A DNA stretch of 64,000 nucleotides, taken from Lytechinus pictus (Eukaryota). The notes under the pieces are model-generated. The model was not told where the DNA came from and did not search any database. It saw only the letters and a program-made list of their open reading frames with translations. How positions within the stretch are numbered: position 1 is the stretch's first letter; every line of letters begins with the position of its first letter. Positions 1 through 44,015 of the stretch are shown here, in pieces. Made by a program: the position numbers and the translations under genes. The DNA lies in assembly GCF_037042905.1 (NCBI RefSeq), contig NC_087250.1:8062001-8126000 (forward strand), in the 5' to 3' direction.

Positions 1-19
1 TCTTAGGAATGAAGTTTTG

Positions 20-1018
20 ACCATATTAAATTTCACTCCATAGCCAGATGTCTAATAATAAACAAGTACTGACCAGTTTGAACTTGACCCCATGGCCATA
101 TGTCTTAATAAACAAGTACTGACCGGTTTGAACTTGACCCCATGGCCATATGTCTAATAATAAACAAGTACTGACCGGATTGAACTTGACCCCATGGCCA
201 TATGTCTAATAATAAACAAGTACTGACCGGTTTGAACTTGACCCCATGGCCATATGTCTTCATAAACAACTACTGACCAGTTTGAACTTGACCCCATGGC
301 CATATGTCTTAATAAACAAGTACTGACCGGTTTGAACTCGACCCCATGGCCATTTGTCTTCATAAACAAGGACTGACCGGTTTGAACTTGACCCCATGGC
401 CATATGTCTTAATTAACAAGTACTGACCGGTTTGAACTTGACCCCATGGCCATATGTCTTTCATAAACAAGTACTGACCAGTTTGAACTTGACCCCATGG
501 CCATATGTCTAATAATAAACAAGGACTGACCAGTTTGAACTTGACCCCATGGCCATATGTCTTTCATAAACAAGTACTGACCAGTTTGAACTTGACCCCA
601 TGGCCATATGTCTTATAATAAACAAGTACTGACCGGTTAAAACTTGACCCCATGGCCATATGTCTAATAATAAACAAGTACTGACCGGTTTGAACATGAC
701 CCCGTGGCCATATGTCTTATAATAAACAAGTACTGACCGGTATGAACTTGACCCCATGGCCATATGTCTTCATAATCTACTGACCGGTTTGAACTTGACC
801 CCATGGCCATTATCTTAATAAACAACTACTGACTGGTTTGAACTTGACCCCATAGCCAGATGTGTAGTAATAAACAAGTACTGACTGGTTTGAACTTGAC
901 CCCATGGCCATATGCCTTAATATACAAGTACGGACCAGTTTGAACTTGACTCCATGGCCATATGTTTAATAATAAACAAGTACTGACCGGTTTGAACTTG
1001 ACCCCATGGCCATATGTC
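20..1018. repeat. About 51-bp tandem array (about 19-20 copies) derived from the 3' end and donor of exon 1143-988
   Basis: Unit aataaacaagtactgaccggtttgaacttgaccccatggccatatgtct is continuous with the exon. Confidence 0.95.
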
Positions 1019-1143
1019 CATTCACCAAGGCCCGGTATGATGAAGAGGATGATGAAAATAAGAAGGGCCATCTCTCGAACAATGCTGGCTAATCCGCGGA
1101 TGGAGTTCAACGACGAGTGTCTGTAGATCCACACACGGTAAGC
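988..1143 (-). CDS. TRPA1-like exon encoding S3 and the S3-S4 loop (AYRVW...EWTYGHGVKFKP)
   Basis: catatag| and CCG|gtcagt; hydrophobic helix. Confidence 0.85.
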
Positions 1144-4100
1144 CTATATGCAAGAATCATTATTACATGTACATGTACATTACATGCCATTATATTAGCT
1201 TGTTCAATTAATAAAATATTCAATTATTCAAATAATAAATTATTTCTAATATTAAATAAGTAAAAATGTTTGATAATTGAAATGTGTAATATTTTAAATG
1301 TTTATTGACACAAAAAGTTTAATCCTAAAATAGCAGGGGTGGATCCAGGATTTTCCAAAAAGGGGACACATTATCCCGAGGAAAAATTTGACAAGCAAAA
1401 AACAAGGCAAAAGCAATTATGTGTCTCGCCCGCTTATGAAAATAACCAGAAATATCGTGATTCGCGAGGGCACGCAACAGAATTGTATCGAAACTTCATC
1501 GTGAAATGACTGGGATGGAGTAACACTTGTCATAAGAGCCTTGCACGTAAACTTAAATGTTGAGCTGAAAATGACCTTTGACCTTACCATGTGACCTCCG
1601 ACGACTGCAGCATAAGATGCAGGTCCCCCAAGTCCATCTACCATCCAAGTTTGGTTGAAAAGTGACTTACGGTCGCGGAGTTAGGTGTCATAAGAGTCTT
1701 GCATGTAAACTTTAACGTTGACCTTAAAATGACCTTTGACCTTATCATGTGACCTCCGACTGCAGCCTAACATGCAGGTCCCCCAAGTCCATCTACCATC
1801 CAAGTTTGGTTGAAAAGTGACTTACGGAGTTAGGCATCATAAGAGAGTCTTGCATGTAAACTTTAACGTTGACCTGAAAATGAACTTTGACCTTACCATG
1901 TGACCTCCGACTGCAGCATAAGATGCAGGTCCCCCAAGTCCATCTACCATCCAAGTTTGGTTGAAAAGTGACTTACGGTCGCGGAGTTAGGTGTCATAAG
2001 AGTCTTGCATGTAAACTTTAACGTTGACCTTAAAATGACCTTTGACCTTATCATGTGACCTCCGACTGCAGCCTAACATGCAGGTCCCCCAAGTCCATCT
2101 ACCATCCAAGTTTGGTTGAAAAGTGACTTACGGAGTTAGGCATCATAAGAGAGTCTTGCATGTAAACTTTAACGTTGACCTGAAAATGAACTTTGACCTT
2201 ACCATGTGACCTCCGACTGCAGCATAAGATGCAGGTCCCCCAAGTCCATCTACCATCCAAGTTTGGTTGAAAAGTGACTTACGGTCGCGGAGTTAGGTGT
2301 CACAAGAGTCTTGCATGTAAACTTTAACGTTGACCTTAAAATGACCTTTGACCTTATCATGTGACCTCCGACTGCAGCATAAGGTGCAGGTCCCCCAAGT
2401 CCGTCTACGATCCAAGTTTGGTTGAAAAGCGACTTACGGAGTTAGGCGTCATAAGAGAGTCTTGCATGTAAACTTTAACGTTGACCTGAAAATGACCTTT
2501 GACCTTACCATGTGACCTCCGACTGCAGCATAAGATGCAGGTCCCCCAAGTCCATCTACCATCAAAGTTTGGTTGAAAAGCGACCTATGGTTGTGGAGTT
2601 ATGTGTCATTAGGTTTGTGACGGACGGACGACAGACGACATTTGGATCCCTAAGTTTCGCTTTCACCTCTGGTGGGCGAGACAAAAAAGAGGTTTTCACT
2701 TTCAAAAGGGGCGGGCACACACTTCTGTGTTAACAGCATTTTTACAAAACAAAGTTTAATTGTACCTCTCAAAAAGGGGCATGGCCCAGCTTTGCCCCCC
2801 CCCCCTGGATCCGCCAGTGCCTATTAGGACTGGGCTGTTTCAGATATACTGAGTACTGTGGGACACCACAATCCCCCTTCTCATCTCAGCTGCTGTTGGC
2901 GTGACCGTGCCATAATTTGGCATGAACATTCATAAAAAAACATGAACAACGCTCAAATTCAATTCATGAAAACTTTTTTTATTGTAGATGTCATCTTTGC
3001 AATTTTATTTATAGATTTTCACAAAAAAAAGCAAAATTTCCCCTTTTTGTTTCCGGACTCGTTTATGAATTTTCTTTTTCCATTTTCAATGGAAGTCACT
3101 ACAGACCATTAAGCAACCAAATTTACCGCTAAATTGATAACTTTTTTAGGATAAAAAAATAAGAAAATTTATGATTTTTATCTTCCATTATCTTGAACAC
3201 ATTTTATTTGTGCACTCCGAAAAATTGCACGGAACATCAAGGGAATCCTTTAAGCCTTATTAAACTGATCAACAAATTTCGTCACTACACCGTCGCGCGA
3301 AATCTTTTTATTGCTCCGCTCGCTGACTTTTTACTTTCAAGTCTTGCGCATCTTTTGAGACCAAATTTGCGACGCCCGGCTACGTGGTTCCGAAATCACG
3401 CATCATTTTGTAAGAGCACGTCAGACCCAAAATTACTCAAAAACGTGATTCCGTGTATAAAGCCAATGCAAATTTAACAACCAAGAATCATAAATGTATG
3501 ATTATTTTTCTTTTGTTTGTTTAAATGGATTTTTAAAATGCTATTTATGATCGCAAAAGCGTCCCCCAACAAAGTTCAGTGGAAAAAAACATTAAAAAAC
3601 AAAGAAATACATGTATCAGACGAAAAAAAAACCAATAAAATAGATAAGAAATTAGTTATATTTTTCCAATTTTTTGTAGATATTTGTTAGAAATGTAAAC
3701 ATAGGCTCACAAAAAATTAGCTTTCTACTAGTTATATAAATTGAGTTAAAGGCAAAAAAAAAAAAAAATTATTGCAAATTTCATAAGCTTATTTGCATAA
3801 TTAATACAAAAACTAATTTTTTGAAAATATTACTATACAGTCTTGTAATGTAGTTTACATCTGGCTCTACACGCGTGCAAATTTTTGCGGCGATCGCGCA
3901 GCGACCCCCCCTCCGTATATCCTGGTCTGAAATAGCCCAGTGAAAATAGGGTTAATAAGCCAAATATTTAAAATTCAAATTGAGACACCCTTGTGAAAAG
4001 ATAGAATAAGAATTTTCTTACAAATTCTATGAAGTAGATGAGAGTGAGCACGATGATTATCCAGGTGCCGATTTGACCAAAGACAACAAGAGCCGACGGA

Positions 4101-7100: not shown

Positions 7101-10100
7101 TACTTCTTGAATGTTTTCATTTGAATATCATTCATGTATCACCATGCAATCTTCCATTTGTTATCAAAGGTGAATTTCAATGAACATTTTAACCAATTAT
7201 TGAATGTAAACGTATAAGTAAAACATGGAATGCAGACCTGCCAACCTCTGGGAATGAAAAACTGTATTCTGTGAAAAAAAAACTGTATTTTCAAAAAAAA
7301 AAAAATCCTGTTTATGATATCAACTAATGATTTAAAGCTCCTCTTGTGAAAGACCTGCAAAGTGTGAACGGACCATTAGGGTGAATCTTGTTACATACCA
7401 TGAGCCTTATTGGATGATTCTGAGCTCGGTAGACGGGGTCGGTCACATATATTACTGCGTTCTCTTTCAATCTCCCATCACTGTGTATTTCATAATAAAA
7501 TACTTGGCGCACTCGCTCATCGCGGCGCTCAAGCTGCATGCAAGCTAAAATGCGCACTGCTCTTGCAGATGGAAAAAAAATATATATTAAAACATGTGTA
7601 TATCTTCACCCTGGTTTTAACAAAATGATTGAAAAAAAAAAAAGTTACCTGAAATTACATTGATCTAATAACCATGTTTGTGACGTTTTATGAAATAGAG
7701 ACATATAGAGATTATTTTTCTCAATAAATTACGATTTAGTAAAAAAAAAAATTATTTTAATTATTATTTTTTTTTGCAAAAACGTACTAAATACGGCTAA
7801 AACGTACTGGTTGGCAGGTCTGGGAATGTTAAAGGCTTGCTGGGGAAATTTCATTATATTGTAAATACAATGGCTTTTAACTCAGTAAATAAAATCGCAT
7901 TGATCGATCCTTCTGATAAGTCTGAAAAAAAATCTATGAACCAGCAGGATTTGAAGCTCTCATCTACGGATTGCCAGTCAGCATATAACTAGGTTGAAAG
8001 CCATAAGTTGTATTTACAATATAATGAAACTTCCCCAGCAAGCCTTTAACATTCCTATTCATCGTCCATGGTGGACTAATATAAGAATGCATGTCAGATT
8101 GAATCAGGGGAACGGAGGGCTTTGTTCTTATTTCATCGTGACTGTGCCATGGACCAGTGATGGCCCGGTGGTACAGCCGCTGACCGGCAATCAGTAGATG
8201 AGAGGTTCAAATCCTGCTGGTTCCTCGATTTTTTTTTTGACTTATCAAATAGATCGATCAATGTGATCTTATTTACTGGATTGAAAGCCAATAAATTGTA
8301 TTACATATACTACACTACAAATTGGACGCATCCAAGAATGACACATCAATGGTAACTCTGGGCCCCGTCTTACAATGAGTTATGATTGATCTGATCAATC
8401 AAAACTATGGACGACCAGCAACGTAAACATCTATTATGCATGTTTGTTCAAAATATTTTCTAGCTATGATGTAAATTCATGCATTCATTATTTTCTTGAA
8501 AATTCACCGTGCTTCTCTTTGCATACAAAAGACATTGTGCAATTTTTTTAAAGAAAAAAGTTATGACACTGATGGATTTCCATAGAGTTATGATTGATCG
8601 TAACTCTTTGTAAGACGGGCCCAGGCTTCGCGATCTGACATGAGAATTGGGTAATCATGTAAGAAATTATTTGTATCCTACATATATGTAATTAATAAAA
8701 TTTAAAGGTCTCCGTCCTCTTGTTTTATGAGGGAGGCGCAACAAAAAGTACATCAGAAATAACTTCCTTCTCACTACGAAAACAGTGACCAGCAAATCTC
8801 GTACTACAGTTAATTACTGAGGAGGAGATAGGTGGGATTTCTTGCAGAAGGAAAAGACGCCATGGCTGGGACTTGAACCCACGTCCCTCTGATTGAAAGA
8901 CGAGAGTCGTGACCACTAGACCACGGCACCCCCTGACAGAAGTTATAAGCTACTGTGAATCCTTGCGCTCGATTGGCTGGGAGCTAATTAGTCAGTGAAT
9001 ACACCATGAAGTCCTCTCCATGGTCTTGTTTCACAAAGATTTAAGTATGACTTTAAGTCACACTTTAATGCTGACACGTACATGATATGCAACGCGCGAT
9101 CTTATTGATCACTACGCAGTAGTGCGCATCCTCTTGGCATGATCTGACCAATGTGGTCATGCCTTTTATGCCGCACGCAACGAGGCATTTAAGTGCGACT
9201 CTGATTAGGGGGTGTTGCAAGAAAATATTTGCAATCGATTGCAAATATTCTGTTGCAATCTTACAACTGATAGATCAAGTTTAATTGTAGCAAAGGAGAT
9301 CACACTCCATGTTTCGAGAAGCAGATTAGAAATCAATCACAGATTTGCAATTAATTGCAGGATATATGATTGATTTAGGCTCAAATAATAGACCTGCAAT
9401 TGATCGCAAGTTTCTTGCAGCACCCGATATGTCATACAGTACTCTTTGTGAAGCCCCCTGTAGTAATAACAAACTTAGCAAATTAAATTGAATGATTCCT
9501 GTGACTTTAAAGAGAAATTCCAGTATTTGCAGTAAACACTGATTTCATGAGAAAGTCTGTAAAACAAGGCTTAATTGTCAGTATATCATCGAGGATCTAG
9601 ATCTGGTACAGTTACATAAACTGAACTTTGTGAAATCTTGAAATCTACGCTGAAAAATGTTCACACTGAAGATCACCAACACAGATAGGCACACGTGGGA
9701 CAGTGTATTATTATTGCTAAAATAAAGACCCGACGGAAGTGACCGAATCCGCGCTTATTTTGCTTATTTCTCAGCAATTACACAATTTCTTCCAGAATCC
9801 TTTGGCACATATTTTTTATTCATACAAACAGACACTTAGGTGGTCATTATATTAGATTCTGTAAAAAGTCATTTTTAGATCGTTACCAAAACTGGAATTT
9901 ATCTTTAAAGTTGTTATTGTAAATTTGTTATCGTAAGTTTTATGACACCCTCCATGGGTCTTACCGATTCTTCTGCATCGTCGAGGTGGTAGTCCGCAGT
10001 CCCAAGTTGGCTGATCGTACGCATCAACATCCCGTAACCTCTATCAGCAAAGTTCCCTCGGCTTCCTGTAACAAATCACGAAGGGTAAAATATTGGATTT

Positions 10101-13100
10101 CTGTTAACCCTAGTGAAATAGGCCTGGAGCAGATCATGGATTTTCCATAAGGGGGAAATAAAGCCTTCACTCTTGGATGAAGGTTAGTTATGTCACAAAA
10201 GATTTGACAAGAAAAAAAAAAGGGTTTCATTTCAGCATGCCCCATATTTTCCATCCGAATATCTTTTTATTGCTGTCAAAAGGAGAGATCCATCACTGAG
10301 GTAGGCTCTCAGTACAAAAATAATAAATAATAATACAGGATTTGTATCGCGCACATACATGTATCCACCTTGCTAGGTACTCCTGTCGGTACCCATTAAA
10401 CTCCCCCGGGTTGAGTGCAGCACAATGTGGGTAAATTTCTTTGGAATGGAACCCATGTCCTTCAGAATGAAAGACAAGAGTCTTAACCACTAGACCACGA
10501 CGCCCCACAAAGGGGCATTAAAACTTTTCCCACCAGCAGCGATGTATAGTGCCACTTAAAGTCCTCAACAAATTTAATCTGGCCAGTTTCTGAACCCATA
10601 ATGCAACATTTTGTGCAGCATATTCCTTTAAATAACCTCACATCTGAAAACCAATACAAATTCATTCTGCCGACCCATTTTATAAAACAAATGATGCACG
10701 ACGTGAATTGAAATGAATGAATGGAAGATACATGTATCTTACTAGGGGTTGGTGAGGTTCGCATCCAAATCCGAAAACCAAAACAAATTCATTCGACCGA
10801 CCCATTTTATAAAACAAATGATGCAAGATGTGAATTGAAATGAATGAATGGAAGATTTCTTATTAGGGGTTGGTGAGGTTTGCATCCAAATTCATTCTAC
10901 CGACCCATTTTATAAAACAAATGATGCATGATGTGAATTGAAATGAATGAATGGAAGATATCTTACTACGGGTTGGTGAGGTTTGCATCCCAGTCCGAAA
11001 AACAATACAAATTCATTCTGCCGACCGTTCTTATAAAACCAATGATGCACGATGTGAATTGAAATGAATGAATGGAAGATATCTTACTACGGGTTGGTGA
11101 GGTTTGCATCCCAGTCCGAAAAACAATACAAATTCATTCTGCCGACCGTTCTTATAAAACCAATAATGCACGTTGTGGAAATGAAATAAGATATCTTACT
11201 AGAGGTTGGTGAGGTTTGCATCCAATCAGAAAACCAGTCCTCAAGGAGCTCATAGTCGACTTTGATCTTTACCGATGTTGTGTCGTCCATGTCTGTATCT
11301 GTCAGTCTTGTGATGCATTTATCAAGGACAAAACGACAGACACCTGAAATAAAAAAAGATCAAGTTACAGAATTCATTATCATTTCAAAATGATTTAAGC
11401 ATTGGGATTCACCATGTGAATAGTCGTGAATAGGAATGATGGGTTTGGTGTAATAAATGTAAGAAAATGAAAGAGGTATAGAGGAATTGAGAGGCATAAA
11501 GGCAAATAGTAGAGTGGTAATTAGTACAGTATCATTTCTTGGACACAAGTTCTGAAGAGAGAGAAATATTCAGATGAGACTGGGAGATAAAAAGGAAAAA
11601 AAAATGGTTGATTGAAGTAGGCAAGTGGGGATGATGTTTGTAATAATGGTGATGATGATGGTGGTGATGAAGATGGTGGTGATGATGATGATGGTGGTGA
11701 TGATGGTGATGATGATGGTGGGGATGATAATGATTGTGGTGATGATGATGATGATGGTGATGATGATGCTTGTGGTGATGATGATGGTAATGATGATGAT
11801 GATGGTGATTATGATGGTGATGATGATGTTGGTGATGATGATGATGGTGATGATGATTGTAATAATGGTGTTGATGAAGATGACGGTCATGATAATGATG
11901 ATGATGGTGGTGGTGATGATGCTGATGATGATGTTGATGACAATGGTGATGATGATGGCGATACTGATAATGATGATGACAGTGGTGCTTGTGATGACGA
12001 TGACAATGTGACTTACCTGGCATAGTTGTGATGAGTTTCCTCATGGGGGTAGTTTTGTTTGCTCCTTCGCCGGTAGAGTGAGTCATCAGATACCGCCACT
12101 TCTCTTGTGATAACAGAGTTACGGCAACCATTCTATTGGCCAAAAAAAAAATTCATTCAAATTAATTATTTATCAGGAAGCATTGTGGTGTGCTTGTAAA
12201 ATAAAATTTACATTCTAACAGTGCTTTTAATAGTACATGTAGCTAATCAAAATCATTGCAAAGATATGTTCCACTGCAACCTACTCATGATTACAGATAG
12301 AATGGTCCAAGCAATTCCTTCTCTTCACATCGCACTCTAAGAACTCCGTTTTGATTGGCTGCTGAGGCATGATACCATGGTGATGGGGCTCAGCAGCCAA
12401 TCAAAATCATGGTTACATGGTAAGCTTATGCTCTACTGCAACCTACTCATGATTATGGATAGCATGGTCCAAGCAAGTTCTTCTCTTCGAATCAAATTCT
12501 AAGAACTTGATATTTATCAATATATGTTTGTTATATGTTTGTATTTTTGTTGTAGGGCCTCCAAGGACAACATTATACCAATTACTGATGGAGCCACCCT
12601 ACTAAAAAAAGACTTATAAATAAATAAATAAATAAATTTATTGGCTGTTGAGTCAGTTTACCATGGCAATGGGGATCGCCAGCCAATCAAAATCATGTTT
12701 ACATGGCAGAATATAAGTGCCACTTACTCATGACCATTACGGATAGCATGGTCCAAGCAATTCCTCCCCTTCGCGTCACACTCAAAGAACTTGATTTGAT
12801 CCTGATCCTGCTCAAAGAGCATCTCCACAATCAGAATATTCCCTATCTTACAAGCATACATCAATGGGGTCATCTGCACAAGGTCAAAGGTCAACAAGGT
12901 CATTACAAATGGTACAAGTTGGAGGTAAGATAATCATTTAGCAATCATTTCATGAGCATGGAAGCAGACTTCAAGAAAATTTCTTACTTTATAGGCGTTA
13001 CATAAACAGGGTCATCTACACGAGGTCAAACAAGGTCATTACAAATTACGAGTATTTGAAGATGCATTAGTAGTTGGTGTTACATGTATTTCCTGGCTAA

Positions 13101-16100
13101 TTAGTTCTAAGCCAATTAGATAAATGGGCTTCAGTGAAAATCACTATTTGTTCATTGAAATGCTATTTGATTTTTTAAAGGAAAAGTCCACCCCAATAAA
13201 AATTTTATTTGAATAAAAAGACAAAAATCCAACAAGCGTAACACTGGAAATTTTATCAAAATCGGATGTATAATAACAAAGTTATGAAATCTTCAACTTT
13301 CACTTAATTTAGCAAAATAGTTATATGCACATCCTGGTCGGTATGCAAATGATGTGATCAGTAAAAATTGAAATATTGTATAATTCAAACAATAAAGACA
13401 AAAGAAAACTTCGGTGATGGACATCACTGAATCTCCCATTTGCACGTCACTGCATTGTGCATATAAAGCGAAACCTTAAAATGTCATAGCTTTATTTTAC
13501 ATCCAATTTTGATGAAATTTTCAGCATTACGCTTGTTTGATTTTTCTCTTTTGATTCAAAGCAACATTTTTGCTGGGGTAGACTTGACATTTAAGTGATG
13601 ATAATAAAAAATGACTTACCCCTTTATTGTCTTGAATCGTCACAAGTGACTTGTCAGTCTTCAGGAGAAGCTTGGTGGTTAGTTTATGGCCTTTTTTGAT
13701 CGAAAGATGAAGAGGTGTTTGTCCTAAACTATTCCTAATCAATCAAAGAAAAGAATGATTGAGTGACTTGTCTGTCTTTAGAATAAGGTAATTGGTGAGT
13801 TTATTACCCATATTGAAAGCAAGATGAAGAAGTGTTTGTCCTAAACTATTCCTAATCAATCAAAGAAAACAATCATTGAGTGACTTGTCTGTCTTTAGAA
13901 TAAGGTAATTGGTGAGCTTATTACCCATATTGAAAACAAGATGAAGTGGTGTTTGTTCTAAAACATTCCTAATCAATCAAAGAAAACAATCATTGTGATG
14001 AGTGACTTGTCTGTCTTGAGAAGAAGCTGGGTGGTTATTATTTTATGAGCAAGATGAAGTGGTGTTTGTTCAAAAGTATTCCTAGTCAATCAAAGAAAAG
14101 AATCATGATGATGATGATGATGAGTGACTTGTCTATCTTGGCGACTAGTTTATGAGCCCTTTTGAAAGCTAGATGAAGCGGTGTTTGTCCTAAACTATTC
14201 ACAACCAATAAAAAAAAAGAATCATTGTGATGCGTGACTAAACAGTCTTCAGGAGAAGCTTGGCGGTTATTAGTTTATGAGCCCTTTTGAAAGCAATATG
14301 AAGTAGTGTTTGTCCTAAACTATTCCTAATCACTCAAAGAAAACAACAGTGATGAGTGACTTGTCTATCTTTAGAAGAAACTGGGCGGTTATTAGTTTAT
14401 GAGCCCTTTTGAAAGCAATATGAAGTGTTTGTCCTAAAATATTCCTAATCACTCAAAAAAAACCATCATTGTGATGATTCCTAGTCAATCAAAGAAAACA
14501 ATCATTGTGGTGAGTAACGGGTCTGTCTTGAGAACAAATTAAGTGGTAAGTTTACAACTCATTTCGAAAGCAAGAAGAAGTGTTTGTCCTAAACTTTTCC
14601 TGATCACTCAAAGAAAACAATCATTGTGGTGAGTAACGGGTCTGTCTTGAGAACAAATTAAGTGGTAAGTTTACAACTCATTTCGAAAGCAAGAAGAAGT
14701 GTTTGTCCTAAACTTTTCCTGATCACTCAAAGAAAACAATCATTGTGGTGAGTAACGGGTCTGTCTTGAGAACAAATTAAGTGGTAAGTTTACAACTCAT
14801 TTCGAAAGCAAGAAGAAGTGTTTGTCCTAAACTTTTCCTGATCACTCAAAGAAAACAATCATTGTGGTGAGTAACGGGTCTGTCTTGAGAACAAATTAAG
14901 TGGTAAGTTTACAACTCATTTCGAAAGCAAGAAGAAGTGTTTGTCCTAAACTTTTCCTGATCACTCAAAGAAAACAATCATTGTGGTGAGTAACGGGTCT
15001 GTCTTGAGAACAAATTAAGTGGTAAGTTTACAACTCATTTCGAAAGCAAGAAGAAGTGTTTGTCCTAAACTTTTCCTGATCACTCAAAGAAAACAATCAT
15101 TGTGGTGAGTAACGGGTCTGTCTTGAGAACAAATTAAGTGGTAAGTTTACAACTCATTTCGAAAGCAAGAAGAAGTGTTTGTCCTAAACTTTTCCTGATC
15201 ACTCAAAGAAAACAATCATTGTGGTGAGTAACGGGTCTGTCTTGAGAACAAATTAAGTGGTAAGTTTACAACTCATTTCGAAAGCAAGAAGAAGTGTTTG
15301 TCCTAAACTTTTCCTGATCACTCAAAGAAAACAATCATTGTGGTGAGTAACGGGTCTGTCTTGAGAACAAATTAAGTGGTAAGTTTACAACTCATTTCGA
15401 AAGCAAGAAGAAGTGTTTGTCCTAAACTTTTCCTGATCACTCAAAGAAAACAATCATTGTGGTGAGTAACGGGTCTGTCTTGAGAACAAATTAAGTGGTA
15501 AGTTTACAACCCATTTCGAAAGCAAGAAGAAGTGTTTGTCCTAAACTTTTCCTGATCACTCAAAGAAAACAATCATTGTGGTGAGTAACGGGTCTGTCTT
15601 GAGAACAAATTAAGTGGTAAGTTTACAACCCATTTCGAAAGCAAGAAGAAGTGTTTGTCCTAAACTTTTCCTGATCACTCAAAGAAAACAATCATTGTGG
15701 TGAGTAACGGGTCTGTCTTGAGAACAAATTAAGTGGTAAGTTTACAACCCATTTCGAAAGCAAGAAGAAGTGTTTGTCCTAAACTTTTCCTGATCACTCA
15801 AAGAAAACAATCATTGTGGTGAGTAACGGGTCTGTCTTGAGAACAAATTAAGTGGTAAGTTTACAACCCATTTCGAAAGCAAGAAGAAGTGTTTGTCCTA
15901 AACTTTTCCTGATCACTCAAAGAAAACAATCATTGTAGTGAGTAACGGGTCTGTCTTGAGAACAAATTAAGTGGTAAGTTTACAACCCATTTCGAAAGCA
16001 AGAAGAAGTGTTTGTCCTAAACTTTTCCTGATCACTCAAAGAAAACAATCATTGTGGTGAGTAACGGGTCTGTCTTGAGAACAAATTAAGTGGTAAGTTT

Positions 16101-19100
16101 ACAACCCACTTCGAAAGCAAGAAGAAGTGTTTGTCCTAAACTATTCCTAATCAATCAAAGAAAAGAATCATTGTGATGAGTGACTTGTCTGTCTGAGAAT
16201 AAGTTATGTGGTGAGAAATGTCTTCAGGTAAGACATCAACAGTCAACTCATTAGTACAGTCAGTAAAACTCTTACTAGGGTTCTCAGAATGCATACTGGA
16301 TTAAGCATAATTTTAGATGCAATCTGCATAAATGGGTCAAAACTAGTATACAGGCACAAACCTTTGGTTTTCAAAATTCGCATAGTGCACATTGCAAAGT
16401 CTGAAGTAGTGAGACTAGACTCACTACATGTATGTACTGTGGCTGCCTCTTATTTGACAGACAGACGGAAAGTTTCGGGTCTACAGTAGTCTTTACTCCA
16501 GACAGGGTGTAATTGGCTAGAGTGTCCAATTTGAGTCTGCGCTTGCAGACTAGTCCAAAACTACAGATTCAAAGTCATTTCGGCCTACAAGTTTGAAAAT
16601 AATCCTATCTTACTGTTCACAGAGTCTGACATCATCATCGTCCTGGTTCTTCAGGATAGCTTTGGCCGTGTCTAAATGACCCCCCTGGGCGATCAGGTGC
16701 ATGATACTGTTATCTTGGGAGTCTTTCAGATGGAGAGAACGCCTGTGCCATGATGCAAACTCCAATAGACTCCTACATGTACATAAGAATGAAAACATGA
16801 ATTGATGACATTGTAACTGAGGGGTTATGGATCAAGATACAGGCATTTATTTAAACTGGGTTCCAAAAGAAACTGATCAAACTTTACAAGGGCGCTTCTC
16901 AAATTTCACTCAGTCAAAATGAACAATATTTTTACACAGGCTAGCTTCAATAATCTTTACTACACATATGTCAATAATTAAGAGATTGGTTCAATCACAG
17001 AGAGGTTATAGCCCCTCAAATCAATTGGTTTCAGAACCCAAAGTCATGAAATGGCAAAAGAACAACCACTGAAAATGAGATGCGATTAAACAAACTTCCC
17101 ACTTTATCACACATTTCCTTCACAGGCCACTTTAAGTGAATGGCTTGATCTCAAAGAAGCAACAGGAAGTCAAAATAAAAATGTTAAATGACTAGAAGAA
17201 TCACACAGGAACAGATCCCCGGGAATGTCCCGGTAAGCGAGGGATAATCTGAACTCAGCGTTTTTCTGTGTGTGTCTGAGTTAGATACACAGAGACACGC
17301 TCCGTGTTCAGATTATCCCCCACTTACCGGGACATCTTCGGGGGGGGGGGGGGGGGTGTTGTATGCTGCTATGTGATTGTTACAGTCATTTAAAATTTTG
17401 ATGTTAATTTCCTATAGCTTCTTTTTTGATTGAGCCAAGCACTAAAACATGCCAGTGAAGACATGTATAGTAAACTCAGAAGTTTGATTAGTCATGTCTC
17501 AATTTCAATGGTCTCTCTTTTGCCACTTTGCATGTTTCGTGACTTTGGATTCTGAAAACAATTGATGTGATAGGCTACACTCTCTCTGTGATTGAAGGAA
17601 TCTCTTACTGTGCTTAGTAAAGATTACTGTATAGAAACCATGTTATTCAAAATAGTAAATGGGCTACATGGCAAAATGGATGTAGACCAAATGTGACCAG
17701 CGACTCCAAAACCACCAATAAGTCGCTAGGGAAGGTTCTCTGTAATAGTCAAAATAGTAAATTGGTCTTCAAAAAGCCAAAATTTAAAAATTGGCTTAAT
17801 TAATATCTCAAAATTCATTTTGGTCAAGTTATTGTTGGTTTTGGGGTGGAAAAGGAAAGTAGAAAAACTGGATTTATTCCGATACTTACTCTGTCTGTCC
17901 TTTGGCTGCACAGAGCAGGATAATCTTCTCCATCTCCATAGATTCACATCCTGTACTGATGTCATCAAACCGGTTTAGCAACTCCTACAAGAGAGAGTTA
18001 AAGGTAAAAGAAAGTAGTTGCAGCAAACAATAATTTCATGAGAAAGTCTTTGAAATCAAGGTGAATGCCACCATATTATCATATATCTATTTCTGGTACA
18101 TTGAAATCACCTCATCTTTGTGAAATCATGAAATCTATGCTAAAAACGGATAATTCTGATGATCACTAACAAAAAAAGGCATATGCGGGACGATGTATTA
18201 ATATTATTTGGAATAATACCGGACATTTTATGAAATTCCGTGCTTATTTTGCTCATTTCTGAGCAATTACACATTTTCCTCCACAGTCATTTGGCACATA
18301 TTTTCTATCTATACATTCTTACACTTGGGTGGTCATTTTATTGGATTCTGTTTGGACTCATTTTGAGAACGTTACCACAACTGGTGTTTATCTTTAAAAT
18401 TATAAACACAAACAAACTTCCAAAGAAATTTACAAACAATTCTTCTCTAAATCAGGGAGGAAGATTTGGATCCTTTCTACATTAAATTTCAAGAAACTAA
18501 CTTGATTTTAAGGCATTTAATCTATTCAGTATACTTCTACATAAAATTTCCTGTCAATCCATACCAAATTCCGTCAGATTTTTTTTTATGTGTCTACTTT
18601 AAGGACAATGTAAAGGTACTCGGTAAAAATGTCAGCAGTATCTAGGACGCTTCTTGACTCTGCTGGTGGTGGTATACGGTCCTATGACATTTGCTACGGC
18701 GACAACTGCTCCGCTGTAAATTCCACACACTAAAGGAATGACCAACTTAAACCCTGGATATATTACTATACCCTATCATAAAACTAACACAAAACCCCTA
18801 TTCCAAACCTAACCCAATTGTCGGCAGAGCAAATGTCGTATCACCTGGTATACAAATGATAGAGGTAAAAAAAAGTCACAGGTAAAAGCAAACTGAACGT
18901 ATTACCAATGTCATAATTGGTATCTTTAAAACATGATACATAGATGAATAAATTAGACATACCTGAAGCACCAAAGAAAGATTTTTTTCGACTGAGATCC
19001 ATTTGATGAGTTCAATCAGGATGGATGAATCTTTGATGTGTTTGAGAAGGACAACCAGGCTATCGCTAGATCCTTTCAAAGCAGTGAACTTCAGCAGAGA

Positions 19101-22100
19101 TGGAGATCCGTCAACTTCGTAGTCATTTAAATTTAGTTTCACCTCCTTGTCATGACTGAAAATAAAATATAAATAATAATATTAATAAAAACGGCATAGG
19201 CCTATTTACCCAGGGTAGCCACTTCAGTTGCGAAAAATGTTCTCCCAATGGGCCTGCCCTGCAATTATTATTACCCCGACTATAGAGTACCGAAGTGATG
19301 ATGTCACAAAAAACTTTTTTAGCATTTTAGATACCATATTTTGGTAGAGCATGATGAAAAACCCCCACTACCAAAATTTGGTGGGAATCGGTCCATTGGG
19401 GCCTTAGATATGACCTCACGAATACATAATTAGCCCCATTGAAGTCAATGTATTATTGGTCTGGTTTTAAATATTAGGAACCAGGTCAATGATACATTGA
19501 CTTCAATGGGGCTAATTATGTATTCATGAGGTCATATCTTGGGGCCCCATGGACCGATTCCCACCAAATTTGGATTGTGGGGGTTTTTCATCATGCTCTA
19601 CAAAAAGTATGGTATCAAAAACCCTGAAATGCTAAAAGTGAAAACTGATGACATCACACTTCCATACTCTATAGCCTAGGCGCTCAAGCATGCAAGGAAT
19701 TTCTTCCTACCGGGTACCCATTCACCTCACATAGGTTGAGTGCAGCACAATGTAGATGAGTTTCTTGCTGAAGGAAATTACGCCATGGCTGGGATTCGAA
19801 CCCACGTCCCTCAGATTGACAGATTAAAGTCATAACCACTAGACTACGACACACCCACATATATAGGGAAACCAATATTTATATCAAAACAAGTAGGCCT
19901 ATAGAGTATACTTACATGTAGTTCTTCTTTAGTACGAACACATAACTTAGCAACTGGTATGAAATAATGTTATTCATTAATGAAAACGACCAACGTCAGC
20001 GTTCATCCGGTCTGACATATCAGACCATTTTAGTCAAAATATCGATGGTGAGATTTTTCACAGAAAATGAAAGAACAAGTCATACTCTATACATAGTTAA
20101 CTTTCTATCCATCGATTTATTTTAGTTTCGGAGAAAAGAGAGCATTTTCAAGACAATGGCATAAATCTGATTGGAAACGTGTACTGCGGCAGAGCAAACA
20201 ACAGCTGCGTGCATTTAATGAGCAAACATGCGGTCAGCAAACCTTTCTATCCGTATGCATTGACTTTGCAGATGAAAGAATGTTACCACAGTTTGCGTGT
20301 ATTGAAAATGCAATCAGGACTGGTGTATTCCCTATGATCTTTTTTTTGCACAGGGGAAATGTAAACCGCTTTAACTAAAATTACAATCATGTACAGTATT
20401 TCATTTGTGATATTTTCTCCTATTCTCAGTACTGTGTAAAAATTGAAATATCGATGTCAAGCAAATATCTAGCTTTTCCAACTATGTAGTTTTTCTGGCA
20501 ATAAAAATATCGTACGGCTGGGGACAAAAATGTGGAGATTACAGTAAACTTTTAATTCATTTTTGTCTGAAACGGGTTTGCGATGTCGTATCTGTGATAC
20601 AACGGTGCGGATGTACAGTACTGAGTAATTCTTGTTTATTACACACACACATACCTTTGATACATGATGCATATTTCTTCTGTGACTTCGGCATAATTTC
20701 CCCTGCAGGCATAGTGCAGAGGCGTCAGCCCTTTTGAATTCTTTGCATCGAGGAGTAGAGGGCAAAGGTCGTGGAGCATATGGAGGATATCGAGGTGTCC
20801 CTGTTTGCAGGCAGTGTGCATGATGGTAGATCCGTAGCGAGACTTGACGTCCAGAAGATAATTGGCAGAGGCATTTTCTTTCTGATCTTCTGGACTTACT
20901 GAAAAAATTATCAATAAAGAAATAAAATGTTATAATGATACTAAACTGTGGAGGATATCTAGATGTCTGTTTGCAGGCCGTGTGCATGATGGTAGATTCG
21001 TAGCGAGACTTGACGTCCAGGAGATAATTGGCAGACACACCCTCCTTTTGATCTTCTGGACTTACTGAAAAAATTTATCAATAAAGAAATAAAATGTTAT
21101 AATGATACTAAACTGTGGAGGATATCTAGATGTCTGTTTGCAGGCCGTGTGCATGATGGTAGATCCGTAGCGAGACTTGACGTCCAGGAGATAATTGGCA
21201 GAGGCACCCTCCTTTTGATCTTCTGGACTTACTGAAAAAATTCATCAATAAAAAAATAAAATGTTATAATGATAATACATGTAGGCTGTGGAAGATATCA
21301 AGGTGTTTGTGTGCATGATGGTTGATTCGTAGCGAGACTTGACATCTAGGAGATAATTGGCAGACGCATCCTCTTTCTGATCCTCTGGACTTACTGAAAA
21401 AAATTGTCGATAAAGAAGAGAAAGAGAGTATATGAATGATATCAAGATGTCAGTATGAAGGCCGTATGGATGACTGACTTGATGGTAGATCCATGTACGT
21501 AGCGAGACTTGACGTTGAGGAGATAATTGGCAGACGCACCCTCTTTCTGATCTTCTGGGCTTACTGAAAATAGTAATTAATGAAGAAGAGAAATATATAT
21601 TCTAGACTGTGAGAGATAGCAAGAAAAAAGGCTATGAACCATGCAAAAATTTTGCAGAATTGCTGCGATATTGATCGATTGCGCTCCGAAACAGAATAAA
21701 AATGGTTGCACCCATGCATGGGGATTACAATGCTTCAGGCTGATAAATTCAAGCGAGACAAGGCAAAAGCGATTTTGTGTCTCGCCCAATTTTTGAAAAT
21801 AACCAGAAATATCTTGATTTGCTAGGGCACGCAACAGAATTGTATCGAAACCATGACGTGTTTCCTCCGTTTAAGAAATACCCCACCAGGTTATAACACA
21901 GGAACCCCTTTGCCCTGCGTGTTATGTCAATGGGAGCTCAAGTGGGGTATATTCGACACCCCACTTTCAGTTTTTGGGAGAGTTTCATTTCTCTCTTTTA
22001 AACTGGGGAGGGGTGGACTGACAGCTGATAAGAGCTGATAACACACAGCAACCAATGATGACCACAGCGAGTGAAGTTGGATTGCAGCTGTCCACCTTAC

Positions 22101-25100: not shown

Positions 25101-28100
25101 AACGCCACAAATGTTCGGATTAACGAACCCTTTTACGTTTTCGGATTAACGAACATCGAGGTATAGGCAATTTACGTGTTTCGGAATTACGAACCTTCGG
25201 AATAAAGAACCTTCGGAATTACGAACCTTTGGAATTACGAAGTGTAACCGTCCTTTCTTACCTTCCGCATGTCACATCCTCTATGCTGACAGCCCGAAAG
25301 GAATCGCAAAGCGTACTTGACGTTGCCTTTTTTCAGGATGATGTAGAGGGGGGTGTTCTTGGCGGCATTGACGGCGAGGGGATTGGCTCCGTGCTTCAGA
25401 AGCAAGAGGGCGCTCTCAAACTGACCGTTGTGGCAGAGGATGTTGAGAAGGTTTGAATTGACCCTTCCAAACTTGACTGGTTGCTGTGTAGAGGGAACAG
25501 AATGAAAAGAGGTTTATTTCTTTCACAAGCCTAGCTCACACTTTTATGTTCTCAAGCTGCATATTGCTGCATTAGGGGAAAGCAGCAATACGCTGCCTAA
25601 AGTACCACACTCTACGCAGAAAAATGTTCGGTTGCAAACACACATTTGCGTACAAGCTCATATAAAGTTGCACATCATAAAACACAGTGATCCAAGTTAA
25701 AGCAAAGGAACAGTAAATACATGTACATGTAAATCAAAGCAGTAATAATTGCACACTCTAAATTGGCAATGCAATAAAACGAAATAACTATTTAAAATAC
25801 AAAATGGCATATTTTCATATGAATTTTGCCTTCAATATTCATTTTGACCCATGTTACATGTATATCCATATTTCTCTTTTTCAAGTATGAAAAGAAATAC
25901 AAATTCACCAATTATTGCCAATTTAGGGAACAAAGGTAAATAAATCTTGGCAATGTCATCAATACCTACATCCACTCGGATATGTGGATGTGAGAGTAGA
26001 GCTCTGACCACCATCTTCTGACTGGCAAATTGGCAACACATTGAAAATAATGAAATCACTGTTTAAAAATGCAAATTGGCAACAATTTCCTAAAATTCTT
26101 CATTCTCATTCATTTAGACTCACACATTTCCATTTTTTTTTCAAAGTATGAAAATAACAAGTGGAATGCCTCTGGCTGTCTCACCTGCATCACGCGATTC
26201 AATATAGCAGCAGTGCTGACGTTGAAAACTACTATAAAATAATTATTCACAAAAAACACCATTCATATAATGATACAATACTAAGTTCATTGATATTTGA
26301 CCTTGATCATGTGACCTAAAACTTGTCAGTGATACTTGATTACCTACCCCTTTATCCACATTTTATACACTATATCTATAAACTTTGAAAGTTATGACAG
26401 CAATCTAATAATTACCTCTAAAATGGCAAAATTTCAATGACCTTAAATGACCTTTGACATTAGTCATGTGATCTGAAACTCGCACAAGATGTTCAGTGAT
26501 ACTTGGTTACTCTAATGTCCACGTTTTATGAACTAGACCAATACACTTACAGAGATATGATGGTAATTCAACAAATACCTCCAACATGGCCAAAGTTCGT
26601 TGACCTTAAGGACGTTCCACAGTTAAAGTGAAATCCATGTCATTTTCACCAAACTTTGCACATAGATACTTTAGAACCTTAATATTCGAAATATGCAAAA
26701 ATTAACACAGGTCCATGTGCTTGATTTTTTGCTATAGAACTTCAAAGTTCACCCAAATTGATGTTCTTAAGAATTGCGCATTTAAAAGAATTTGGCATTT
26801 TTAGACCGCCCAAGATTACTACAATGAGTTTAAACCTGTATTACTCAGTCAAAATACATGAAAAAGTCATCAAATTTCGCAAGAGAGTTAATAATTGTAT
26901 CGTTAGAATGGAGAATATATTTATAGTGCTATTTGTTTGCAATTTTAAGTTTAACAGCACTGTCAGTTCTTAAAAATGGCGTAAAAGATAACAAAATCCC
27001 AATCTAAAAAATGTGAAATTTCAGTAACAAACTACAAAAGTACAATAAATGCTGCACTTTATTCAAAATCCATGTCATTTTCACCAAAATTTGTAGAGTT
27101 GTAGAGGAAGGTATACATAAGAGGAACAAACATTAAAAAATAGGGCTTCATGTGCTTGTTTTTAAACTATCAGCAATTTTATTAGAGCAAATGTGCTTTT
27201 TAGAACACCAAAAATGCGCCGAATGCTTTGTATCTATGTGAAGAAAAAATCAAAACCACTCTACCATTTATTCAAACTCGGGGTAATATTCGTGATTCTT
27301 GGCAGCACTGCAGGGTAAAGTATTTTGAAATTGTAGAGAATCTTTTTTTGAATGGTCCATGGAATAATTCAATATTTTAGCTTCATGAAATAACGCATCG
27401 GATCTGCAGTTAAAGTGCAGAAGATGTGAAAAATCAGCACATACCCGCAGCTAATTAATCACCTGTTCATCCATTGTGACGTCAGCGCGCAGAGTGTAAA
27501 CTATGCGCAGATCATAATGCGCACAAACATAACTGTGGAACGTCCTTAAATGACTTTTGACCTTGGTCATGTGACCTGAAACTAGGACGGGATGTTCAAA
27601 GATACCTGATTACTCTTACGGCCAAGTTTCATGAATCAAATCTATAAACTTTCAAAGTTATGATGGTAATTCAGCAGATACCCCATTATAGCCAAAATTC
27701 ATTGACCTTTTACGTTGGTCATGTGACCTGAAATTCGCACAGGATGTTTAGTGATACTTGATTACTTTTATGTCCAAGTTTTATGAACTAGACCAATAAA
27801 CTTTCAAAGTTATGATGGTAATTCAACAAATACCCCCAATTTGGCCAAAGTTCATTGACCCTAAATGACCTTTGACCTTAATCATGTGACCTGAAACTTG
27901 CACAGGATGTTCAGTGATACTTGATTACTATTATGTCCAAGTTTCATGAATCAGATCCATAAACTTTCAAAGTTATGATGGTAATTCAACAGATACCCCC
28001 ATTTTGGCCAAAGTTCATTGACCCTAAATGACCTTTGACCTTGGTCATGTGACCTGAAACTCAAGCAGGATGTTCAGTAATACTTGATTAACCTTATGTC

Positions 28101-31100: not shown

Positions 31101-34100
31101 TACATCATTGTCATTATCATAAATTATAACAATATCAAAGGTATAATTGGTTTTATAAAACGGGTTCAAGGATGTAGCCAATAGTAAGCGTGTATTCAAG
31201 TCACATGTTCTGGTTTAATTCTACGCAATCTCCTACCTGTGATATTTTGTGCAGCACTATGCATTTTGAAGGCATCATCTTACCCATAGTGCGTAAAAAC
31301 TGAGATGGCATCTGAAATACGCGTTCTTTCAAAGAAAAGGCTATCAGTACCAGCGCTTACTTAGGCCTGCATACTAGATATGTCTGTGATGTTTAATAGA
31401 AAGCAGGTACGGGTGTGACCGCTTCGTCTGTGCGCTCCCTAGAATATTTGGAGGGATTACAACACCCTTTCCACTACAAACTTACACTGCCGACCTGTTC
31501 TATGAAACAAATAATGCACATTTTAGAAATTGTGATGTTATTGACGATGCAGGCATCTCGGGTATTCGCAATAACATGAAAAGGTACTCGGTGCAAGTGC
31601 CTCGTGCCTTCACATATGGCAAATACCCTCAAATGCGCTGCATCGCCACAACAGACTCCTAAATATGCATTATTTGTTTTATATCATATCCTACCTGCCC
31701 CATGTCGGATGAGCATCTCAACCCAAGGTATTAAGACCTTCATACAGGCATAGTGGATAATGCTGTTACCCCTCCCATCTTTTGTGGCTATCTCCTTTGA
31801 GATCTGTTCCGGGGTGAGGTTCTCCAGGACTCTTTTGGCTTTCTCTAAATCAGGTTGCTTGGAGTTTACTAACTGGATACAAAATGAGAGAATTTTTTTA
31901 CATTCTTTTTAAAAATAAAGATTTCATTTCTTCAAAATAAAATCACAATAACCATTAATAATAGCAGCAATATAATAAATCATATACATTAGTAGAAAAT
32001 GAGAGGATTTTGTAAAAAAGAAGATTTTTAAAAACTGTTATTAATTTCACTACGCAGAAGTCACTTTGAGCAGTTCAATCTTAAGGTCTCAACGTTGGAA
32101 AGTTACAAATGCATAATTTCTATAACAAATTTACTATGAGCCAATGAGATGATTTCAGCAGCTAACTGTTATTCTAAATTTGTTATTGTATCAAGTTTTA
32201 TGAAACGGACCAGTGTCTTTCTGAGTTTGATGTTAATTGATCCCACCTAATAATCATATCTGATACACATCTGAAAAAAACACTCAATTATACACATACT
32301 GTACACACAAAGCTGCATCCTTATCTACGACGTAGTCTTGAAATACATTCCCATTAAAACAATGAATTATTTCCTTTGATTTTTTACAAAAAAATATATC
32401 ACATAGAAAATTTTGTGAAGAAATAACATGTTTCAGTCTTCCAGGCACTTCTGTTTTCAATATCTAAAACATTATACCTTACGAAGGGAGTTCCCCTCAT
32501 TGTAAGAAAGGAATGTACTCTTAGATTTGCATTTACAGTATTTTCTTCTCTTTACTGCACCATGAGTATCTTTTTATATGGATACCAGTGCATTTCCAAT
32601 GTCCATATCATTTTTATCATTATTGCAAGAATAAAATGTACTAAAATGTGCCTTTAGCACCTAACAAGGTGGATATGTGCGCAATATAAATACTCTATAT
32701 TATTATTATTTATATTAAGAAGGGAGTTCCCCCTCATTGTAAAAATATGTGAAGGGAGTTTCCCTCATTGAAAGAATAGAATGTGCCTTACAAAGTGACT
32801 TCCCTTCGTTGTAAAAGATGGAATGCACCCTAAGAAGGGAATTCCCCTCATTGTAAGATGCAACAAACCTTAAAGAGAGTTTACCTCATTGTAAGAATGG
32901 AATGAACTTTAAGGAAGGAGTTCCCCCCATTGGAAGAAAGAATATACCTTAAGAAGCGAGTTCCCACGGACTTTCCTGGCCAAGATTCTAAAGCTTGCTT
33001 TCCCGCCGGGCATCTCGGGCTCCGATTCCGACTGTGAACTTTCCGACTCTCCTTCGCTCCCGGAGTCATTGTCGGTGAAAGGGGGCGAGGGGGTACCCCT
33101 CCCTTCCTCCTCCTCATCACTGGAGTCTGTTGAGGAATCGCTTCGTTGACTCAGGTTCCACACTGCATGGTTTCGGAACCGCTGTGGGTACCGCTTCATC
33201 ATATTCTCGTAATTCCTTTGTTTGGTTTCAAGCGAAAGAAAAATAAATGAGGAAAACGTGAAATAATTGAATTCAATTTTATTCTATTCGGTAATACCAG
33301 GCCAGTCGGGAATACAACAACTCACGATAATAAGAATGAAATGACCAAATCCATTAAAAAGATTCATAAGTGGCTACTATAAAAAATTACCATTTAGATG
33401 ATTCCCCCCCCCCCCTGGCCATTGCGGGAAATTCAACGTCCTTCCAAATATGGCAATCTCTTAAATATGGGACATCGCTGGCTCTGCTGGGTGAATGGGA
33501 AATGAAGTTAGAGTCTAGATCTACCGGTATTGCAGTCAGACTCAGAGCAGAGGTGAATGGAGCTGAGCAAACACATCCGATTTTAGAGAAAAAAAGAAGT
33601 TGCTAATAATTATTATTTCCTGATTTCATTCACTTGTTCACTGCAACCACCCTGCCTATCTATGCAGTTCACTACACACACTTACAAAATTCTTCAAAAT
33701 ATCACTTTAGTTTGTAACCAAAAATAATTATTTCCATAAAATGTTATTTGTAATTTACTTTTCATAAAACTTGGGGATCATTTTTTTTTCACCAGAGAGC
33801 TCAAAAACTTTAATTTTGAACATTTTGTTGTTTAGGCCCTTTATTGGTGGTAAGTAATATTGCTTCAGAATTGTCAAAAAACAATCTCTTACTTTTAATT
33901 TAGAAAACAAAAATAATCAAAAGATTCAATTTACTTGAACAGAGCCAAGTAATGGAAACTGACCGTGTAAAAAAAAAAGGATTTGCCCCCAAGAACAAGA
34001 GAAAATTAGCCAAAATGCAACCTTATTTCACCACACAGGGAGTTCTAACACTAACAGAGAACAAGGTTATATCTAATCAGTTATATCATATCCTTGTTCA

Positions 34101-43472: not shown

Positions 43473-44015
43473 CGCATACATTCGTAATTCCGAAGCTTCG
43501 TTATTCCGAAGGTTCGGATATTCCAAAGGTTCGTTATTCCGAAGGTTCGTATTTCCGAAGGTTCGTAATTCCGAAGGTTCGTTAGTCCGAAAACGAAATG
43601 AGGTTCGTAATTCCGAAGGTTCGATAGTCCGAAAACGAAGTGAGGTTCGCAATTCCAAGGGTTCGTTAATCCGAAAACGAAATGAGGTTCGTAATTCCGA
43701 AGGTTCGTTAGTCCGAAAACGAAATGATTAACGAACCTTATTTCGTTTTCGGACTAACGAACCTTCGGAACAACGAACCTTATTTCGTTTTCGGATTAAC
43801 GAACCTTCTGAACAACGAACCTTATTTCGTTTTCAGATTAACGAACTTTCGGAACATCGAACCTTATTTCGTTTTCGGATTATCGAACCTTTGGAATAAC
43901 GCCACAAATGCTCGAATTAACGAACCCTTTTACGTTTTCGGATTAACGAACATCGAGGTATAGGCAATTTACGTGTTTCGGAGTTACGAACCTTCGGAAT
44001 TACGAAGTGTAGCCG
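43473..44015. mobile_element. MITE built of CCGAAGGTTCG subrepeats, copy 3
   Basis: 8-bp TSD GATATTTT. Confidence 0.88.

Follow-up and report, generated by a model that had tools for sequence, protein, structure and literature searches.

The stretch of the Lytechinus pictus genome considered here is 64,000 nucleotides (nt) long (assembly GCF_037042905.1, contig NC_087250.1, positions 8,062,001 to 8,126,000) and is called the window below. It contains 18 of the 24 exons of a minus-strand gene for a homolog of the channel TRPA1, and at several of these exons a segment across the exon-intron junction has been copied into intron sequence. The gene was recognized through a 124-residue frame at 3971-4342, which matched sea urchin proteins named "TRPA1 homolog"; its best full-length match is P0002 from Lytechinus variegatus, a protein of 1251 amino acids (aa). 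By tblastn of P0002, with splice sites chosen by trying GT/AG pairs against that protein, exons 1 to 18 are placed at 988..33202 and exons 19 to 24 in the 8.3 kb preceding the window start (locus L032), all on the minus strand, and the region 20-32966 falls within this one gene. An earlier note on the same DNA, made from the letters, had named a TRPA1-like host gene with 19 exons in the window; the gene is borne out, and the extra exon is probably a copy of exon 16 that is described below. The gene matches one place only in the assembly and all 23 of its introns are GT-AG. When the exon-contiguous splice sites (those at the edges of the arrays) are used, the 24 exons give 3762 nt of coding sequence and a product of 1253 aa with one terminal stop, which is identical to P0002 at 1211 of 1253 aligned positions (96.6%) with 2 gap positions. 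P0002 is named a TRPA1 homolog by a source and has precomputed Ank and PF00520 hits, and it is through P0002 that the N-terminal ankyrin repeats and ion-transport domain of a TRPA1-type channel are found here; the hits belong to P0002, and the window product is tied to the channel type by the 96.6% identity. The gene looks intact, provided that the exon-contiguous splice sites are those used.

Junction-spanning copies are present at 8 of the 24 exons and 9 of the 46 junctions of this gene. They were collected by comparing each exon plus 150 to 200 nt of flank with the locus by blastn, by Tandem Repeats Finder (TRF), and by scanning with probes made from the real junctions. The copied segment is made up of the edge of an exon, its splice site, and the adjoining intron, and is placed in that intron. 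Six of the affected exons have tandem arrays or adjacent copies, and two (exons 4 and 16) have single dispersed copies. Head-to-tail copies adjoin the authentic junction at 7 junctions of 6 exons (exons 1, 7, 11, 14, and 18, and both sides of exon 12), whereas exons 4 and 16 have one copy each, at distances of 2.5 kb and 1.3 kb from the real junction. In the arrays labeled A, B, C, E, F, and G, the unit is a contiguous segment across the boundary, comprising 15 to 118 nt of exon edge, the splice site, and 15 to 95 nt of intron. The earlier note had listed eight junction-anchored arrays and held that the real exon is left intact each time. All eight are present at the places it gave on the minus-strand gene, and the exons are complete and the coding sequence unchanged, as judged from the open frame of 1253 aa obtained with the array-edge sites.

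On the donor side, array A belongs to exon 18 and occupies 1..1018 on the minus strand, with the real donor at 988 (TRF 38-1018, 19.3 copies, 89% matches). It continues about 170 bp past the window start. Each unit of 48 to 52 bp holds the last 31 nt of exon 18, the donor GTCAGT, and about 15 nt of intron, and the real site is accompanied by 20 decoys, 2 of them outside the window, all of which keep GT in the probe scan. The 52-bp TRF unit and these counts agree with the 19 to 20 copies of about 51 bp that had been read from the letters. Array B, at exon 14 (10639..11236, minus strand, real donor 11200; TRF rows 10657-11223 and a unit listing), has a unit of about 103 to 121 bp and consists of the real site plus 4 copies, with GT in 3 of the 4 decoys. 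Its place and unit of about 121 bp are as first described (about 120 bp), and the count of 5 to 6 becomes real plus 4. Array C lies at the donor of exon 12 (12241..12800, minus strand, real donor 12728) and was traced by blastn and by tblastn hits to aa 616-650. Its unit of about 160 bp had been thought to occur three times, and the real unit and two recognizable copies are indeed found, at 12511-12351 (77% identity) and 12355-12275 (81%), which is 284 and 445 bp downstream; one copy was caught by the junction probe and keeps GT. Array E, at exon 1, is decayed (32467..32965, minus strand, real donor 32948; TRF 32755-32965, 5.2 copies, 68% matches; blastn). Its unit of about 40 bp holds 15 to 18 nt of exon, and among 5 decoy motifs there are 3 with GT and 1 with GC. 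Both the array and the unit had been foreseen, with 7 copies in place of the 5.2 copies and 5 decoy motifs now counted.

The two dispersed copies are also from donor-side junctions and were defined by blastn and inspection of the sequence. The copy of the exon 4 end at 25895..26031 (minus strand, real donor 28509) is 137 bp long and is made up of 62 nt of exon, GTAGGT, and 75 nt of intron at 90% identity, with GT kept. It is found 2.5 kb downstream of the real donor, with transposons at 26440-28440 between the two, so that the pair of 270-bp units once described at 28509 is actually one dispersed copy. The copy of the exon 16 end at 7304..7484 (minus strand, real donor 6124) was absent from the earlier list. 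It is 181 bp long and 100% identical, contains exon 16 nt 14-99, the donor with its GT, and 95 nt of intron, and lies 1275 bp upstream of the real one. It is bordered by transposon-like sequence (7483-7822) at one end and by about 13 consecutive T at the other, and, by eye, an imperfect short direct repeat (GAAATAC / GAAAATAC) flanks the copy and the transposon-like sequence together.

On the acceptor side, array F belongs to exon 11 (13645..16215, minus strand, real acceptor 13734) and occupies 2.57 of the 2.88 kb of intron 10. In the 119-bp unit, 29 nt of intron and AG are followed by the first 90 nt of exon 11, and the real site is joined by 20 decoys, 19 of which keep AG; TRF resolves the array into 14.6 copies at 98% and 7.0 copies at 73%. 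The center of the array is homogenized, and the units at its edges match the real junction. Array G, at exon 7 (20774..21593, minus strand, real acceptor 20898; TRF 20781-21570, 4.7 copies), has a unit of about 167 bp in which AG is preceded by some 49 nt of intron and followed by the first 118 nt of exon 7, and AG is kept in all 4 of the decoys that accompany the real site. The acceptor of exon 12 (12873) has one copy at 12974..13046 on the minus strand, detected by blastn and the probe scan: 79 bp, with 37 nt of intron and 41 nt of exon, at 75% identity with AG kept. These three match what had been read at exons starting at 13734 (119 bp, about 21 times), 20898 (about 166 bp, 5 times), and 12873 (one extra copy).

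The four largest arrays (A, B, F, and G) are of local origin. When two units of arrays A, F, and G were searched against the whole 812-Mb assembly, every match fell inside the array from which the units came. Array B is likewise local, with five further matches of 39 to 45 bp elsewhere that derive from a single piece of about 40 bp. As a comparator, a 151/306-bp tandem array at 1397..2698 (no strand assigned), which is borne by a transposon, is met at 50 or more places genome-wide at 87 to 93% identity, and the tandem arrays at 22353-23092 and 27703-28142 also belong to high-copy transposons. The high-copy element at 1397-2698 and 22353-23092 has its 151/306-bp array internally and is rich in TGACCTT. 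No cross-matches between the junction arrays were found by blastn, and their identity by TRF ranges from 98% in the core of F to 68% in E, in line with earlier statements that they are unrelated in sequence and vary widely in decay. Since they are unlike in both sequence and age, the arrays point to separate events.

A total of 57 decoy junctions were found, and GT or AG is kept in 53 of them. Real and decoy sites were compared with a position-weight score trained on the gene's own 23 donors and 23 acceptors. Decoys scoring exactly like the real site make up 10 of 20 in array A, 3 of 20 in array F, and 1 of 4 in array B, and 13 decoys in the core of F score 7.0 against 6.3 for the real acceptor. 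With 53 of 57 dinucleotides kept and scores near those of the real sites, there is no sign that decoys have been selectively destroyed. The decoys of array E are mostly decayed, with scores of -4.3 to -0.8 and one at 5.9. A cryptic donor suspected by eye in the core of array F was rejected, as no donor-like site there scores above 4, and the decoy acceptors of F are thus without a partner donor. Conservation within the units is inconsistent: the exon-derived part of the decoys is less conserved than the intron-derived part in arrays B and F, whereas arrays A and G show the reverse. Constraint on the exon portion was therefore not upheld as a general explanation. By the probe scan and the conservation and score tests, decoy sites are neither destroyed nor specially conserved.

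Junctions of this gene hold more arrays than chance placement would give. In the null model, a unit of the length of each array is placed randomly in the gene, and placements internal to an exon or covering a whole exon are discarded. A junction is then spanned by 5 to 16% of viable placements for units of 40 to 181 bp, a larger target than the "tiny fraction" that the earlier note had supposed. It had called for a genome-wide permutation test; random placement within this gene shows an excess: 9 of 15 arrays span a junction against 1.34 expected (P = 4e-7, post hoc). In a strict set of multi-copy arrays with a period of at least 40, 6 of 8 do so (P = 1.6e-5, also post hoc). Two controls from the same genome are consistent with this. 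The C15 paralog has no junction-spanning copy at any of its 23 exons (Fisher's test against 8 of 24, P = 0.004), and none was found at 30 kinase-domain loci (pooled with the paralog, P = 3.5e-5). The protein P0003 was considered as an isoform of P0002 and rejected as such, the two being paralogs at 84% identity; a second close paralog for comparison was not found, as the P0003 search gave only the TRPA1-homolog gene and the C15 paralog. The excess here, together with the absence of copies from the paralog and the 30 kinase loci, makes a bias toward exon borders, whether mutational or selective, a fair inference. The earlier note had offered a process targeted to exon borders or a retained bank of decoy sites; between the two options the sequence tests are neutral or inconsistent.

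The earlier note had found no standard feature class for such arrays, but they match two that have been described, the amphioxus minisatellites known as "mirages" and a repeat in intron 7 of human F7. The founding mirage paper is reportedly that of Canestro and colleagues in 2002. According to the amphioxus globin paper, the term traces to the Adh3 gene, and mirages are minisatellite-like duplications across the exon-intron boundary, both 5' and 3', seen in Adh3 and in the globins BflGb6 and BflGb9 (PMC3087553). Units there range from tens of bp to about 160 bp, and many but not all have AG/GT; copy number varies between haplotypes, and the center of an array is homogenized with the edge units excluded (PMC3087553). 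Splicing is described as undisturbed (PMC3087553, PMC3902484), lancelet PGBD5 and troponin C are reported to carry mirages too (PMC3902484), and the globin paper states that the mechanism of their generation is unclear (PMC3087553). Judged by their sequence, the urchin arrays are mirage minisatellites and display every mirage feature that could be tested. As in the amphioxus arrays so described, units span the boundary, both 5' and 3' boundaries are affected, unit length runs from tens of bp to about 160 bp, AG/GT is mostly kept, the center of an array (array F) is homogenized, and the host is a marine invertebrate deuterostome. They differ in that the host is an echinoderm, and in their number in one gene: eight exons are affected, an array can reach about 21 copies, and the decoy sites amount to 57. 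For the amphioxus mirages, normal splicing and instability of length have been reported, whereas the urchin arrays are known from an assembled sequence. Full-text literature searches gave no mirage-type array described in echinoderms and the term only in amphioxus papers, and both the density of junction arrays and the echinoderm host appear to be new.

Human F7 offers a parallel for the donor side. Intron 7 of that gene is reported to carry a 37-bp variable number tandem repeat (VNTR) of 5 to 9 units with the exon 7-intron 7 junction in the first unit (PMC1557585). The donors are described as identical and functional with only the most upstream one used, for which the authors invoke 5'-to-3' scanning (PMC1557585). 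Arrays A and B share the arrangement given for F7, an authentic donor in the first monomer followed by pseudo-donors, and downstream donors identical to it are found for 10 of 20 decoys in A and 1 of 4 in B. The F7 VNTR, as presented, is a single array in one intron for which splicing was measured, whereas in the urchin the splicing outcome is our reading of the gene model and the acceptor-side arrays have no F7 counterpart. Gain of introns by tandem genomic duplication or internal gene duplication is said to have been treated by Hellsten in 2011 and by Gao and Lynch in 2009. In the model of intron gain by tandem duplication, as one source sets it out, duplication of an AGGT within an exon gives rise to a new intron (PMC3443670). 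The likeness is that a tandem duplication within a gene yields spare splice sites and a duplicate that can be spliced without coding change (PMC3443670). The urchin arrays, unlike that model, duplicate an existing junction and lengthen an existing intron, and no intron has appeared at a new position: the exon chain is colinear with P0002 and the arrays are inside existing introns. Variable internal tandem repeats in human genes of segmental duplications, as reported, similarly include repeats at exon-intron boundaries that are able to alter gene structure (PMC2812944). Those repeats are described as changing exons or creating introns, often with alternative transcripts (PMC2812944), whereas the coding sequence of the urchin gene is unchanged.

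The cluster at this locus is genuine and striking; the feature itself is known, if obscure, but the phylum is new for it and the density is unusual. The explanation that we consider probable, with a good measure of doubt, is that a short segment across an exon-intron junction was duplicated nine times independently in the TRPA1-homolog gene and that unequal exchange or slippage during replication later multiplied most of these duplications, as happens in any minisatellite. A duplication of this type would keep one complete exon joined to its own splice site, and since that exon stays attached to its site the extra units would simply become part of the intron. Use of the exon-contiguous site would be the condition for the gene to remain intact. 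In an array on the donor side that site would be the furthest upstream of the donors, a parallel to intron 7 of human F7; in one on the acceptor side it would be the sole acceptor that has a complete exon and a donor after it, in keeping with exon definition. The arrays would be tolerated because the splicing machinery picks the exon-contiguous site, and the decoys may be regarded as tolerated by-products and not as a selected device. The excess at junctions would be a bias of birth, with breaks or stalled replication at exon borders repaired by local re-synthesis in a region prone to minisatellites and probably highly polymorphic. The structures, the fact that they arose locally, the integrity of the gene, and the junction excess inside it are observed; what the explanation supposes is which sites are spliced, that decoys are neutral, and what causes the bias.

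Several points weigh against this explanation. We infer the use of array-edge sites solely from the open frame and an orthologous predicted protein, and copy numbers depend on the assembly, above all in the 98 to 100% identical core of F and the exon 16 copy with its 100% identity. The P values were obtained post hoc, on a gene selected for its odd appearance, and the controls are small (53 coding pieces), with many of the kinase loci being long single frames and not typical internal exons. A locus-specific array of 42 bp x 42 (92% matches) is present in the last intron just outside the window (L032:2346-4187), more than 400 nt from either exon; as the one large non-junction array in the gene, it suggests that the region is generally repeat-prone. 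It also qualifies the earlier statement that almost all minisatellites outside transposable elements straddle a junction, which holds inside the window and fails with this intronic array just beyond it. A hint of constraint could be seen in arrays A and G, whose decoys are more conserved in their exon-derived part (0.92 and 0.80, respectively) than in their intron-derived part (0.83 and 0.64). The junction is not significantly centered in the units (P = 0.11), centering being what a break at the junction might give. The GC content of the arrays (0.36 to 0.40) equals that of the introns (0.37), and nothing in the sequence indicates a particular mechanism; GC-richer exon sequence (0.48) as a better substrate for repeats was accordingly rejected.

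It is possible to do without any bias toward junctions, if duplications occur anywhere, those internal to exons are purged, those at junctions are as neutral as those in introns, and this gene is the extreme of a large scan. The junction target of 5 to 16% of viable placements per array is indeed not small, minisatellites are many in the sampled sequence of this genome (the kinase loci and, by TRF, the 70-kb region of the paralog), the large array of 42 bp x 42 avoids junctions, and the gene was singled out visually in a scan of very large size. We nevertheless consider such an account unlikely, given the 9 of 15 (or 6 of 8) arrays at junctions, with P values that by rough estimate would survive correction for the number of array-rich genes likely scanned, and given that the same structure was met repeatedly in the few amphioxus genes described in detail (PMC3087553, PMC3902484). 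Alternatively, selection may maintain the arrays as a store of decoy or alternative splice sites, with possible roles in tuning of expression by unproductive splicing and decay, in recruitment of U1 or U2 to weak sites, or in provision of variable inserts. The many decoys that retain their dinucleotide and score like the real site would fit, as would the non-consensus C at intron position +3 of the exon 18 donor (GTCAGT) and the conservation pattern of arrays A and G. Retention of GT or AG is, however, expected from high unit identity without any selection, the old array E has let its sites decay, and arrays B and F show the opposite pattern of conservation. In addition, the unit lengths (48 to 52, 103 to 121, 119, and about 167) are not multiples of three, so that use of a single decoy would shift the frame, the paralog does without any such array, and the F7 pseudo-sites are reported to be silent (PMC1557585). 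Retention by selection is therefore very unlikely in our view.

Two more skeptical accounts question the arrays themselves. Mis-assembly of a highly heterozygous genome might have produced the arrays or their copy numbers, and it is here that the perfect identity of the exon 16 copy over 181 bp and the runs of identical units in the core of F are of concern. Most arrays are made up of diverged units (68 to 92% identity) with indels and array-specific variants, which is not expected from mis-joined haplotypes or miscounted identical repeats, and the gene region has no N gaps; an artefact is highly improbable. The units might instead be parts of mobile elements or satellites that landed at exon borders, as transposon-borne tandem arrays are present in the gene (1397-2698, 22353-23092, 27703-28142) and the exon 16 copy adjoins transposon-like sequence. 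Each unit, however, holds unique coding sequence of the adjacent exon, and no match to arrays A, F, and G was found away from this locus. On the assembly-wide matches a transposon origin is rejected for A, F, and G and nearly so for B (arrays C and E and the copy labeled D were not searched singly), and for the set as a whole it is scarcely conceivable.

A broader form of the birth-bias explanation is more speculative, and we regard it as an outside chance: exon borders may be true birthplaces of minisatellites in hyper-polymorphic marine deuterostomes such as lancelets and sea urchins, with mirages as the scar of a junction-coupled mutational process. Exons could act as islands of homology between very divergent haplotypes, in which case recombination or repair synthesis started in an exon would stall or switch template on reaching the intron, and the drop in homology there would give rise to junction-spanning tandem duplications. 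Alternatively, pausing of the polymerase or the spliceosome at splice sites might stall replication there. If exon borders were such birthplaces, a junction-coupled process would be lengthening introns and seeding new splice sites.

Lancelet genes have been known to carry mirage repeats for more than two decades, and the repeats have been put forward as a source of new introns and of alternative splice sites. With nine independent cases that differ in age, now in a second phylum, three questions can be answered by counting: whether junctions show an excess genome-wide, whether that excess is linked to heterozygosity or recombination rate, and how the spliceosome ignores dozens of intact extra sites. 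Array A, with about 20 near-identical donors, and array F, with 20 acceptors, lend themselves naturally to tests of how splice sites are chosen; they resemble the F7 model but are larger and cover the acceptor side as well. Should the excess prove to be chance, the locus would still be a clear example for annotators, as such arrays yield spurious exon hits and misleading gene models.

Other repeats in and around the gene do not span junctions or were noted in passing. A (CAT)n microsatellite of 111 units (11646..11979, minus strand, TRF) starts 38 nt after the exon 13 donor, and a frame read from exon 13 through it is open and reads as a long His-rich stretch. TRF also found a non-junction array of 74 bp x 2.2 at 24594-24755. 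Within intron 4, between exon 4 and its junction copy, an element of about 945 bp at 26606-27553 is 97 to 99% identical to 38 of the genome copies scored and 92% identical to one more, and looks like a very young, recently active transposon family. An inverted-repeat element with 16- and 42-bp subrepeats is present in three copies (5046-5519, 24802-25249, and 43481-43901), the second of which starts 13 nt past the exon 5 donor. Elsewhere in the genome, G000:C8:33859581-33881831 (L020-L030) holds a giant tandem ankyrin-repeat frame, with a reported length of 9098 aa, along which dozens of weak matches to P0002 by ankyrin repeats are spread. Finally, at G000:C7:28966763-29009091 (L067, L069), at least 11 kinase-domain frames with identical scores and a spacing of 4.0 to 4.3 kb form a tandem gene or element array.

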